35,862 nt of DNA from Rozella allomycis CSF55 (lineage: Eukaryota), in the NCBI GenBank assembly GCA_000442015.1, contig KE560925.1:1-35862 (forward strand). The letters run 5' to 3'. The notes below the pieces were generated by a model. It had not been told where the DNA came from and searched no databases. It saw only the letters and a list, made by a program, of their open reading frames with translations. Shown here in pieces: positions 1 to 35,862 of this stretch. Position numbers and translations under genes: made by a program. Within the stretch, counting starts at the first letter, position 1; each line of letters begins with the position of its first letter.

Positions 1-57
1 CGTTTCTGAAGTCCGGGTCGTAAACTCCCCGTCCGATAAGACCATTATCATCTAACA

Positions 58-97
58 GATCTGAAGGTCTCGTGTTCGATCCACGATGTTCGCACCA
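58..97 (+). other. 3' half of a tRNA-Phe-like sequence (tRNA positions ~37-76, with encoded CCA); probable minus-strand primer-binding site rather than a tRNA gene
   Basis: GATCTGAAGGTCTCGTGTTCGATCCACGATGTTCGCACCA aligns position for position with the 3' half of eukaryotic tRNA-Phe. T-arm TCGTG/CACGA pairs, B-box GTTCGATCC is present, and it ends in CCA. No oligo-T terminator, and the upstream bases cannot form the anticodon stem. Confidence 0.75.
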
Positions 98-100
98 ATT

Positions 101-489
101 TGTAACAATTGATCCATGCTAAAGTTCAATAATTTAATTTAGTGTTATTAATTAGTTATGCGAATACTTATCTTTGATTGACGCGACTGTCAAGATTGAT
201 TATCGATCTTCTTGTCATCTGTCATTACATATGTTTCCATGTATGATTCTAATTCTGGATCCATGATAAGTTCATTTTCTTCCTTACAGATCATGAGGGA
301 TCTCTTCGCAAATACATAAACACTTGAATTCAAACTCGACAGTTTGGATTGGCACAAAGTTTTCCAAATCAGCAATGATGCGGTTTTATATGTATAAAGA
401 AATATGTCTAGCGGAACTGTATTTGGACGAGCAATCCACAAAATGTCATATATTGATCTCTTTTATGTTTTTTCGAACTACAAGTTACA
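101..489 (-). mobile_element. Candidate LTR of an LTR retrotransposon whose internal region runs off the window start
   Basis: TGTAAC at 101-106 and GTTACA at 484-489 give TG...CA inverted termini. The minus strand reads ...GTTACA-aat-TGGTGCGAAC, the canonical LTR/PBS junction. The 489 boundary is a guess. Confidence 0.45.
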
Positions 490-833
490 ACAATCATCAA
501 ATCCGCGATTTGGTAATTCGACGCGGAGAAGAAAGTCACGAAGTCCCGGTTATTTATCACTTATTTCCCCAACCCTGGGCATTTATTCCTTCAATCCTTT
601 ACAGATTTAGTAGCATTGCAATTTGCAAATTCTTAATTGAAGTACTTTCCAAACCTTTTTTTCTTTTCAACGATTACTGTTGCAAACTTGACCTTTGAAT
701 CTCTTTGCCCCAATCAATGAGTATACCATACCTTTGCCAATACTTACGCATTTAGATAAACAGTCTTATCATCATACACACCGATGTTGACGCTAAAAAA
801 TTTTGATTGTCAAATTCGGCAATTTTGGATTCC

Positions 834-1866
834 ATGCGTCCCAAAAAGATACTGCTTAATCATTCAAATTACATTCTTAAATCAAATTCCGACCGCAAAA
901 GCCAGATTATATTTGGTAAATCCTGTGTACGGATGGCCTTAAAAAGCCAAAGCAGGTCCTCCTTCACGAAGTTATTCATGGACAAACAGAACCAAGATCT
1001 AGACATTTTGAACCTTGCTAAGAGCATTAATCTCAGTTTTAAGCTTGTAGACGAGAAGACTTTGAGAAGATTGACGAATGAAGAGAAATCACATCAAGTA
1101 AAATGTTGCGGTAACATACACGAGGGCGTAGTGGTTTCGTGCGGACCGCTGAAACAGAATTCAGTGGAAGAACTTGGCTGGGAACCGGGGACGAATACTT
1201 TGATAATGCGGACTAGAAAGAACACGACTGCACTGGACTATCAGTCACGACATCCGGTACCGGCTGGAAGGATGCCGTTGGTTGTGGTTCTGGAGCATGT
1301 TTCATGCCCATCAGTAATAGATATTTTTGTTATTTAGAGAATATGGGAATGATTATAAGGAATGCTTGCTGCTTTGGTGCTGATGCAATTGTAATTAGTC
1401 GAGATAGGTAAATACCAATTTAAATTTTTATGCAGCTCTCCTTTAAGTGCCACTACTTCTTTCTCGAGCGGTGGGCTAATGGAACTGTACGGAGCGAGCA
1501 GAGTGCATCGTGCTTCAAGAACAATTTTAGGGGTTCTGACAGTACATCTAGTTATTCTAGTATAAATTAGGCAGCTAGGAACAGCGGCTGGGATATTGTC
1601 AATACGCAGGTTCATGGGGATACAGTTGAACAATACCGAAATGAGAAACGGCCGACAATCCTCTTGCTTGGTAAACGTTATTACGATCTCTAATGATAGG
1701 AAATGAAGCTACTGGCGTATCATCAAGTGTTGGGAAACTTGCTAATTTTAATTTAACGATAAAGGGCAGTCCACTTCCCGGGTTTGAAAATGTTTTGGAT
1801 TCACTCAATGTGGCAGTTGCTTCGGGCATATTGATCCAGTCTCTGCTTCCAAAACTTAAAATTTAA
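834..1866 (+). CDS. MRM1: SpoU/TrmH-family rRNA 2'-O-methyltransferase (MRM1/PET56-like), multi-exon
   Basis: Motifs IFGKSCVRMAL, HQ/GVV, PLVVVLEH, IGNEATGV and LDSLNVAVASGILI (SPOUT knot), joined across short introns; stop at 1864-1866. Confidence 0.8.
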
Positions 1867-10134: not shown

Positions 10135-10625
10135 CCTTATTCATTTTTTGCTCATCTGAAGGATCTAGTCTTGATTGCTCATTCTTTTGCTCTTTATTCC
10201 GTATTCGATAGACTTCCTTCACGATAGATATCCAGATAATCTATCGGGCATAGATTACTGGATCATCTTCAAACAATCTTTTAAGAAGATAGAAGATTTT
10301 ATGAATTTTAATTATTACTTTAACATTTTTTACTAATTAAAAAAATCAATATTACTTTAACAGAAAATAGTCCATCTGCNCCTTATTCATTTTTTGCTCA
10401 TCTGAAGGATCTAGTCTTGATTGCTCATTCTTTTGCTCTTTATTCCGTATTCGATAGACTTCCTTCACGATAGATATCCAGATAATCTATCGGGCATAGA
10501 TTACTGGATCATCTTCAAACAATCTTTTAAGAAGATAGAAGATTTTATGAATTTTAATTATTACTTTAACATTTTTTACTAATTAAAAAAATCAATATTA
10601 CTTTAACAGAAAATAGTCCATCTGC
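10135..10625. repeat. 245 bp direct duplication either side of a single N (10380); probable assembly overlap
   Basis: 10135-10379 is repeated at 10381-10625. Confidence 0.85.
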
Positions 10626-15918: not shown

Positions 15919-17470
15919 ATGGACGTTGAAGAAGTCATTATTCCATTTGTTCTGTTACCTTTACTATATTCTTTGACGCTTTTATGGGCATACCAATACC
16001 GTCACGAGGATTACCTGGAAAAACGTATGTTCCCTGTCCTGTTCATAACAACTGCCACCAATTTTGTTTCCGGAATATCTTACTATCCGTTTAAGAAGCC
16101 AAACAGTTTTCAAATATGTTGGGTCCAACAAATATTTTACTATTCTGTGGCATCATACTTTGTTTTCTTGTACGTGATGAAAACAGCTAGTGTGATCATA
16201 TGGATCTATTTGGCTAATCACCACGATGAAAAGAAACGGTCAAGGATGGGACTAGAGAAACCTGTTTTACTATTCTTTGGGGCTGTATCAAGGATAGTGA
16301 ACAGAAAAGCCAAGGTAGGATTGTTTCTTTTGGATTAATAGTCGAAGGAGTCGAAAGATAACGAATTAACGTATGCTATTAGAAAGCCAGATTTGAAAGT
16401 CTTTTTATTCTGCTCCTTTTGTTTCAATATATTGCAAATAATCCTATTCTCAATTGGCTTTTTCACTACCCTCGATCACATGTATGATGATGGTTGTGCT
16501 TTAGCACCCTTCTATCCTATGATTGTTTTGGTTTTTACTTTCATGATGCTAGTTGGATATTTTATGTTTGTTTTAAAGAAGCTGAAGGATAACTTGGGAA
16601 TGGTAAAGGAATGTAAAATGATATTTATTACCTATTGCATTTGCTTGCCAATATATGCAATTTTAGACCAAACAAGTAATGATCCNCTTCATGATGATAG
16701 TTGGATATTTTATGTTTGTTTTAAAAAAGTTGAAGGATAACTTGGGAATGGTAAAGGAATGTAAAATGATCTTTATTACCTATTGCATTTGCTTGCCAAT
16801 ATATGCAATTTTAGACCAAACAAGTAATGATCCTGTGACTAAAGTACGTACTTCTAAAGCTCTAGCTTTGACTGTTGCTATAATCGTTCATTACCATTCA
16901 CTGGTATACCCCACGATTTTGGCGATGAAATTTAGATACATTAAAAGTCTAATAAGTTTAACCGAGCCCGCTCTCTTTAGTGCATTGAACGATCCATCTT
17001 CATTTAAGCAGATCAAAATGGTGGCCATAGAGTCATTAGCAGTGGAGAACATCCTATTTCTAGAAGAATTGAAAGATTTTTATGATAAAATTGGTGAAAA
17101 GTTTACGTACGCAAAGATCAAAAACGAAAACGATAACGTTGTCAAGACTTCTCCGGTTTTGACAAGCGACAAATCCTTAATTGTTCATACAAATCTCAGC
17201 CGACTTTGTCATACTTATATGGAGCAGATATACGAAAATTTTATAAAAGCTGGCTCGCCGAACGAGTTAAACTTGACTAATGAGGTTAGAAAGGAATTTG
17301 AGGACAAAATGGGGTCTTCTGACTTCTCACTTTCTATTTTTAATCCCGTGAAAGACGAAGTTTTAAAAATAATCTTTCAAAACATATTTCCAAGGTACGT
17401 AGAAAAGCTAAAGGAATCCAAATCGAAATCAAGGAGCTTATTGCTAGGAAGATTCTCGAGGGAAAAATAA
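15919..17470 (+). CDS. 7TM-RGS fusion protein, paralogue 2 (interrupted by an assembly duplication at N 16686)
   Basis: TM helices, then ESLAVENILF, FIKAGSPNELNL and IFNPVKDEVLKIIFQNIFPRY; collinear with 11341-12791. Confidence 0.85.
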
Positions 17471-32607: not shown

Positions 32608-32849
32608 AGCACTATCTTATCTACCAATCTGAGAAGGCGTGAGCTTGATGAGTCAATGTCAGCTTTGATTTTTCTTGTTGAAAATTATTAGAGTTAATGA
32701 CTTTCATTTTCAATTTCAATGTTAAAAATGTATAGAGATTAGAAAGTGTGTAATCCATTACCAATTGTAGATCTGCCATATCAAAATGATATATTTAATA
32801 AATTATTTTGGAAAATGATATAAACTCAACATCACAACATGCCAATGAA

Positions 32850-32927
32850 CATTTCTCAAGTCCGGGACGTAAACTCCATGTCCGATATTACCAACCACAT
32901 CATTTGATATTACCAACCACATCATTT
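32850..32927. repeat. Diverged copy of window positions 1-44, overlapping a 22 bp tandem duplication
   Basis: 32850-32893 matches 1-44 at 37/44 positions; GATATTACCAACCACATCATTT occurs twice (32884-32927). Confidence 0.8.
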
Positions 32928-34119
32928 TATTTTAATACCATGATAATATTATAATGGTAAATGGTAGTCTCCATAACATTGCAACGATTTCTTTTTATTT
33001 CTACAAATCCATTATGTTTTATTCCTTCTCTCGTTTCTCGACGAATACTCTTTTATCTTGCCTGTTTTCTGCACAGTATGATTTGATAATAGATATTATC
33101 AATGCCACTTAATGACGTCGAATGCGAGATATAAGTAATATACATTTCAAATAAGACATGTGTGTGAAAATCCAGATCTCGATGAACTTTTGACTGCGCT
33201 TGAGCCTTACCTTGATTTTATGAAACAGAAGAATAGATTAATATCCAACGACAAGGCAGACTTTGCCTTCCACAAAAGAAGAAACGCTAGACAAATATGT
33301 ACTAGATAATTTAGAAATGATACCGCTTAGCATGTATTTGGAAGTAAAATATTTGTAATGCATGTATTAAAATATCATACGACCATAGACAATACAATCT
33401 TGGACTTTATGGAAATCACACAGGCGGCTGTTGTTTAGACACTATAAGAATACATTAAAATCACTAGTGGGACCTGAAGGAAATCCCTTATGGCAAAATT
33501 TGATGGGACAAAAAGCGTGCAGAGTAATATTTCAATGCTTTACTGAAGAGCAGCTGGTGAATTAAGAGGCGCGTGTCGATTGCACGGCCTAGGTTTGTTA
33601 ATGTCGTCCATAAAATGGATATATATCATGACAAACGCGACTACAAACAGACGTGATAGGCGCTTAAGTCGTTAAATCAAATAAGCGACATGTGGTGCTT
33701 TATTGATTTACTTCATGTACCCATACACTTAAACTTTCAAAGTCCAACTTGAAACGTATTACTCAACGTTGCTGTGGTTGATTTCGCATGATCGCGCAGA
33801 ATTGCGCCAAGTTCTAAGACTGCCCACTCTTTGATAACAAAACTGCTTAATGAAGCAAGGAAATAACTGATAATGACCATCTACCCGGGGTCAGGGGTGT
33901 GTTACACCTTTGAGAAAAAGCCGGGATCTCTTTTGTCACTAAACTCGCAGAGTCTTGGGTCAAAAATTGGGCAAGTCAAAACAAGAAATAATCTTTATCT
34001 TAATAATGTGATTATCACTCCAATTCTCCCCATTAATTTTAAAGTAGAATATTAATGAAATCGTTTGATTTCTTGCTCTTTCAGTCGTACAATGTCCGGT
34101 TGTGGCTAGGTTTGTCAAG

Positions 34120-35553
<1,434 letters not shown>

Positions 35554-35707
35554 NCAACATTCCACTTCATACAGTTATTCAATTAACCCCTAAAGCATAT
35601 GGATGTGAAGAAGTTCGTTATAAATTGTAAGTGAAATTACTAAATTTAAGCAAGAAATATTGACGCGGTGGATACTTATCGACCAAAACCTNATTTAAGA
35701 TGTTTAA

Positions 35708-35860
<153 letters not shown>

Positions 35861-35862
35861 AT

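Follow-up and report, generated by a model that had tools for sequence, protein, structure and literature searches.

On the plus strand, positions 57-97 of the window (the whole 35.9-kb stretch of Rozella allomycis DNA that was analysed) reproduce the host tRNA-Phe(GAA) from position 36 to position 73 and continue with CCA, with 41 of 41 bases in agreement. On the minus strand, this is the complement of the 3′-end of a mature tRNA; it stops in the anticodon loop, lies three nucleotides from the CA end of a TG...CA repeat, and is tied to its neighbours by junctions that are single copy. With a probability of about one half, we read 57-288 as the fossil of a reverse transcription event in which an LTR element was primed by tRNA-Phe and its plus strand was copied as far as the anticodon loop. 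An origin by reverse transcription, read-through of the usual stop, and dead-end status would be the most likely explanation of this arrangement.

The tRNA-Phe half copy and the host gene

The minus strand reads GTTACA (106-101), AAT (100-98), and TGGTGCGAAC...AGATCT (97-57), and these letters bear out the coordinates 57-106 that the first-pass annotation had given to an extra-long primer-binding site (PBS) for tRNA-Phe. The PBS-like complement (97-57, minus strand) follows the tRNA from position 76 to position 36, comprising CCA, the 3′-strand of the acceptor stem, the T arm, the variable loop, the 3′-strand of the anticodon stem, G37, and A36. Its first 18 nt (97-80) constitute the canonical PBS part, and 79-57 add a further 23 nt; a 3-nt spacer (98-100; AAT on the minus strand) lies between the CA end of the adjoining repeat and TGG. 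On the plus strand the sequence is of the cytosolic tRNA type; its T arm adopts the expected fold (stem 70-74/82-86, loop TTCGATC), and the tRNA part is closed by the discriminator A and then CCA (95-97). The base at tRNA position A58 is present as A at window position 79. At the opposite end, window positions 57, 58, and 59 correspond to A36, G37, and A38, and position 56 differs from A35; one or two of the end bases at A36/G37 could match by chance. The homology had been said to end at about tRNA position 37. Its end within the anticodon loop is upheld, and the match runs one or two bases further, to A36.

Contigs from four public runs that contain this DNA (X1, X2, X3, and X7) were aligned to window 1-1200. 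The depths given below are sums over contigs, and single contigs are cited from a list of the best-supported ones, beyond which lie another 387 pieces and 33 loose ends; single-copy depth is 21 in X1, about 320 in X2, 244 in X3, and about 5 in X7. One X7 contig (record 31) equals window 57-94 at 38 of 38 bases and then reads TTCTTGG..., from which it follows that this is the host tRNA-Phe gene and that it does not encode CCA. In an X2 contig CAGACTGA stands directly before the base equivalent to 57, which gives the host gene a GAA anticodon and no intron. The comparison with the host tRNA-Phe gene proposed in the first-pass annotation thus yields contigs identical over 57-94, and with CCA at 95-97 the complementarity to tRNA-Phe, CCA included, is confirmed. 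Since the host gene lacks CCA and the window copy carries it, the template was a processed tRNA. Downstream of the host tRNA-Phe gene (X7 record 31) come 9 nt (TTCTTGGTT) without a T run and then another tRNA gene, which starts GGGTGGCCGAGCGG... and is Ser/Leu-like. The arrangement suggests a dimeric, co-transcribed pair.

The sequence supports the view that 57-97 was copied from mature tRNA-Phe with its CCA and is no gene. A nuclear tRNA gene would possess a 5′-half, a cloverleaf, and no encoded CCA; within the window, 57-97 has a CCA and neither of the former. ARAGORN predicted 0 tRNA genes in the window, and Rfam returned 0 hits for the window at the gathering score and, for 1-600 at E up to 10, three hits at chance level, none of them a tRNA. 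No cloverleaf forms when 1-97 is folded. A pairing 5′ tRNA half upstream, which had been named beforehand as the sign of an interrupted tRNA gene, is absent from the portion inside the window: CTGAAG does occur at 6-11, but the adjoining 1-5 (CGTTT) cannot pair with tRNA positions 39-43 (TCTGA). A 32-nt part of the copy occurs once in the window and had 0 matches in 100 shuffles with three mismatches allowed. A metagenome scan with 24 nt of the tRNA half including CCA gave 0 matches, in a collection that may contain no relative.

The flanking repeats and their junctions

The earlier reading of a PBS produced by read-through held for the mature tRNA copy, its end in the anticodon loop, and its PBS orientation beside a TG...CA repeat, and fell on the extent of the LTR, which had been drawn at 101-489. 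Over 289-1200 the summed depth equals that of a single spanning contig (X2 record 13, 223-836; X3 record 22, 223-1188); this stretch is single copy, nothing else in those genomes therefore resembles 289-489, and contigs cross 489 without a branch. LTR bounds set by eye through a TG...CA pair, as in the case of 101-489, can err by 200 bp.

Depth, other copies, and the nature of its ends argue instead, with reservations, for an LTR-like unit of 188 bp (30% G+C) at about 101-288 on the minus strand. Read on that strand, it begins with TGTAA (at 288) and ends with TTACA (at 101), a terminal inverted repeat of 5 nt, and the TTACA end sits 3 nt ahead of the TGG with which the tRNA complement starts. 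In X2 and X3 the depths summed over 161-280 amount to ~7-17 times the single-copy level, and among the matches listed several contigs carry other copies that are 90-97% alike to the window in this interval. The outer edge is marked by another copy (X2 record 14, the same as X3 record 23), which departs exactly after 288; in X2 record 14, 52 unlike bases follow. As TTACA has a density of 1.5 per kb in the window, one ending inside the mapped edge (283-288) has a probability of ~1% by chance, and the accidental chance of the TG...CA/terminal-inverted-repeat match, a feature sought after the fact, is roughly 1-4%. When 1-300 was compared with the window by BLAST, the only match was a second copy of the abundant repeat described below; neither 101-288 nor the tRNA half recurs there.

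The part of the unit nearest the tRNA copy is the source of these reservations. Among the matches listed, other copies align at 85% or better only from 145 rightwards, and 101-144, the last 44 nt beside the tRNA copy, is at best weakly shared, with indels. This counts against an LTR, the U5 end of which should be well conserved. Judged by eye, a loose end in X7 (record 32) is alike at ~19 of 23 bases over 118-142 if one permits a small indel at 143-144, and copies in X2 resemble the inner part of the window sequence after an insertion of 13 nt; the repeat family probably extends inward beyond 145. A PBS is expected within 0-5 nt of a repeated TG...CA LTR; the unit here has TGTAA...TTACA ends, a 3-nt spacer, a repeated portion at 145-288, and a weakly shared one at 101-144. 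A loose end behind 247 (GTTAGATCTG) was considered as the start of a second tRNA half and rejected; it is read as a diverged continuation of the repeat, alike with 248-257 at 6 of 10 bases.

On the internal side, 17 unique bases (40-56) separate the tRNA copy from a second kind of dispersed repeat, which is very abundant and the end of which occupies 1-39; it is a neighbour which lies outside the tRNA/LTR feature and inside which the window starts. Its summed depth is 132,027 in X1, 151,378 in X2, 201,378 in X3, and 10,570 in X7, which exceeds the single-copy value by a factor of hundreds to thousands. On the right the repeat breaks off sharply at 37-40, and the flanks beyond are numerous, varied, and mostly A+T-rich, whereas its left side is much alike in many contigs. 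It measures some 80 nt or more, and units occasionally stand in tandem, separated by one T; it may be a MITE, a SINE, or a regulatory module. A second, diverged copy (32/38 alike, with the same left-hand continuation) is located at 32810-32889, ~200-270 bp upstream of an Hsp20 gene, and has no tRNA near it. Directly after this copy, at 32887-32929, there is a tandem direct duplication of ~21 nt (ATTACCAACCACATCATTT, twice). The abundant repeat had no Rfam hit, its folding showed nothing beyond that of shuffles, and a metagenome scan with its core gave 0 matches, again in a collection that may contain no relative.

The joints between this repeat, the 17 nt, the tRNA copy, and the 188-bp unit are real. 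Unitigs X1 record 7 (10-234) and X3 record 17 (11-85) span both junctions of 40-56 at single-copy depth, and the junction of the tRNA copy with the LTR-like repeat lies on unitigs of single-copy depth in X2 (record 9, 65-247; depth 348.7) and X3 (record 18; depth 171.9). Together they show that, among the contigs listed, these joints occur once per genome; there may be further copies that carry this tRNA tail. Neither 57-97 nor 57-288 nor 101-288 is flanked by a target-site duplication, which fits an insertion without integrase but would be expected just as much at the 5′-end of a complete element.

The internal side present in the window amounts to 56 bases, namely the 17 unique bases and the end of the abundant repeat, and includes no retrotransposon body. 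Because the window ends 56 nt past the tRNA copy, gag, pol, a second LTR, and a PPT are not visible. Pfam analysis of 69 reading frames of the window revealed ordinary cellular genes only, with no gag, RT, RNase H, or integrase; these frames were 13 ATG-ORFs and 56 of the 106 stop-to-stop frames of at least 70 aa, the 50 left out overlapping, or lying antisense within, scanned frames.

Origin of the tRNA copy

If 57-288 is the fossil of an LTR-element reverse transcription, an element with a 188-bp LTR (101-288, minus strand) would have been primed by the CCA end of tRNA-Phe. The plus strand, copied from the LTR into the primer while this was still attached to the minus strand, would have missed the stop before A58, and synthesis would have run to position 37 or 36 in the anticodon loop. 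It may have been halted there by G37, if modified, or, where a 3′ tRNA half had served as the primer, by the 5′-end of that half. The resulting product would have consisted of the LTR, AAT, and the 41-nt tRNA complement, with unrelated DNA directly after; it may have been captured in the chromosome as a fragment, or may represent one odd insertion that was later cut by another repeat.

Features that point to this origin are the PBS orientation and spacing (CA end of the repeat, 3 nt, TGG); the end of the copy at 36/37, where 3′ halves begin; the repeat-family behaviour of 101-288, the outer edge of which is set independently by another copy; and the single-copy depth of the unitigs with the junction of tRNA copy and repeat. 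The copy itself has what would be expected of a reverse-transcribed mature tRNA, in that it carries CCA, is 3′-complete and 5′-truncated, and ends at A36/G37, a block at 37 being assumed. In known eukaryotes, the base at position 37 of tRNA-Phe is m1G or wybutosine, either of which is a hard block to RT, and we take G37 of the R. allomycis tRNA-Phe to be modified in the same way. An RT that reads through m1A usually inserts a wrong base; A58 was copied faithfully here, from which we surmise that the template may have been without the m1A mark.

In tRNA-primed retroelements, as described in PMC8599865, plus-strand synthesis proceeds from the LTR into the tRNA primer and halts one base ahead of m1A58, which results in the 18-nt PBS; without this stop RT copies more of the tRNA, and the tail cannot be paired after transfer. 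Copies of tRNA longer than 18 nt, with CCA and joined to LTR ends, are reported from cell culture in PMC12220202. Because a read-through tail would be unable to pair in the second strand transfer, the locus is taken as an aberrant or dead-end copy, and is probably such a product rather than the normal PBS of an active family.

A somewhat unlikely origin is that of an orphan tRNA cDNA. Here tRNA-Phe would have been copied from CCA to the block at 37, for instance after an RT of a non-LTR element had jumped to the tRNA's 3′-end or through self-priming, and the cDNA patched in among repeats, the adjacency of which would be due to chance. The presence of CCA and the end at 36/37 are consistent with such a cDNA, as are the neighbours on both sides, which are repeats of different families, and the lack of target-site duplications. 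The same applies to the right-hand repeat, the other copies of which, among the matches listed, align well only from 145. Integrase-independent insertion of reverse-transcribed tRNA with CCA is described in PMC12220202. Such an origin leaves unexplained, however, both the CA-3 nt-TGG arrangement and the coincidence of TGTAA at the mapped edge 288 with TTACA at 101-105, and neither a poly(A) nor a LINE-like tail is present.

The proposal that 57-97 is a working, extra-long PBS appears quite unlikely. It holds that 41 nt of pairing, with tRNA-Phe or the 3′ half of it, are the rule in a whole element family, that plus-strand strong-stop DNA runs to 36/37 in each cycle, by which the long PBS renews itself, and that the body of the element lies to the left of the window and is interrupted by the abundant repeat. 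The perfect match of 41/41, including the faithful A at 58, and the PBS-like position beside a TG...CA repeat are in its favor, and a template in which A58 was possibly unmarked also fits a regular long PBS. Complementarity beyond 18 nt, and up to 22, is documented for HIV-type viruses (PMC8599865) and MusD (bioRxiv 10.1101/2025.05.12.650695). Against it, unitig depth indicates a single copy of the junction, no body of an element is visible, another repeat starts 17 nt past the tRNA part, the 69 scanned frames contain no retroelement protein, and the listings of a literature search included no element with ~40 nt of contiguous complementarity. Decidedly improbable, in our estimation, is a small-LTR family of an early-diverging fungus with a self-renewing 41-nt PBS and with the entire 3′ half of tRNA-Phe as its primer, supplied either as a tRNA half or as a tRNA without an effective m1A58 block.

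A tRNA-Phe gene split by insertion of the abundant repeat into the anticodon loop, or by a long intron, with its 5′-half to the left of the window and CCA as a chance trailer, is very improbable: the abundant repeat does end 17 nt before the tRNA part, CTGAAG is found at 6-11, and the canonical intron site at 37/38 is near the break, but CCA after A73 has a chance of 1 in 64, the break at the loop would also be accidental, the host gene in the runs is intronless with a different trailer, 1-5 cannot pair with 39-43, 1-39 belongs to a repeat family whose second copy has no tRNA nearby, and ARAGORN and Rfam detected no tRNA gene.

Known systems and genomic setting

The Rozella site shares with the canonical PBS of LTR elements and retroviruses its complementarity to a host tRNA at the 3′-end of the latter, its TGG start, and its location a few bases past the CA end of a repeat bounded by TG...CA. 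It differs from the canonical 18-nt site in its length of 41 nt, all contiguous matches, where a PBS has up to 18 (22) nt; in being single copy with no target-site duplication seen; and in that no second LTR, gag-pol, or PPT is seen in the window. The use of tRNA-Phe as a primer is known from HERV-F. The PBS of lentiviruses and MusD has 22 nt of complementarity, which reaches to one base before m5Um54, according to PMC8599865 and bioRxiv 10.1101/2025.05.12.650695. These too extend past 18 nt, but they stop at 22 nt, whereas the Rozella match proceeds 19 nt further, to the anticodon loop. In MusD the position of A58 is mismatched, whereas the Rozella match is perfect through A58.

Copies of tRNA at LTR ends are represented, in PMC12220202, by a MoMLV circle (Colicelli and Goff 1986) and by tRNA-Gly beside an HIV provirus. 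Like the Rozella sequence, these are DNA copies of a mature tRNA with CCA which are much longer than 18 nt and adjoin an LTR end, and there they are explained by copying of the tRNA that was used as primer. The MoMLV and HIV cases, as presented there, involve near full-length tRNA-Gly in cell culture, whereas the Rozella copy is natural and fixed and ends at tRNA-Phe 36/37. The tailless tRNA retropseudogenes of mammals are L1-mediated, 5′-complete, and 3′-truncated, and have target-site duplications, as stated in PMC5322556. They are likewise RNA-derived tRNA fragments broken in loops; by comparison, the Rozella copy has the opposite polarity, being 3′-complete with CCA and 5′-truncated, and no target-site duplication.

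Nor does 57-97 resemble a tRNA-derived SINE, as it comprises only the 3′-half (B box) and both of its junctions lie on unitigs of single-copy depth. A pseudo tRNA-Phe gene of the mouse, reportedly described by Reilly, Ogden, and Rossi in 1982, is said to consist of the 3′ part with CCA, to end near the modified base 37, and to have been taken as a product of reverse transcription. That copy is mammalian and is not known to adjoin an LTR.

If 57-288 is a scar only, it would be a natural, fixed example of what cell culture predicts for a failed A58 stop, namely that RT continues until it reaches the next hard block in tRNA-Phe and that the product is a dead end. The faithful copy of A58 hints that some tRNA-Phe in Rozella may be without m1A58. 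Were a 41-nt site common to the family, it would constitute a new priming mode, undescribed so far, and would bear on the interaction of 3′ tRNA halves or fragments with retroelements.

The window carries ordinary eukaryotic genes with introns and has a G+C content of 32-40%. Pfam identified Raptor, F-box/WD40, rhodanese, two RGS-domain genes, an eIF3 subunit, a mitochondrial-type release factor, D-Tyr-tRNA deacylase, eEF2, ALG10, an armadillo-repeat protein, Hsp20, and PFK2; the eEF2 is ~80% identical to that of chytrid-grade fungi. The gene nearest the tRNA copy (834-1337) specifies a substrate-binding domain of the SpoU-type RNA 2′-O-methyltransferases, with no evident link to it. X1 and X2/X3, which bear different organism labels, possess near-identical DNA in this region. 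The X1 contig has 13 letters that differ from the window over 205-1200, with 11 listed differences within 876-1142, an interval in which X2 and X3 show zero; the window is closer to X2/X3 than to X1. Tandem duplicates that are 95-100% alike occur at 10135-10625, 16540-16833, and 35248-35862, where they flank single N letters (10380, 16686, 35554, and 35692), and those at the right end of the window include duplicated PFK2 exon sequence. They look like artefacts of gap closing or assembly rather than biology.
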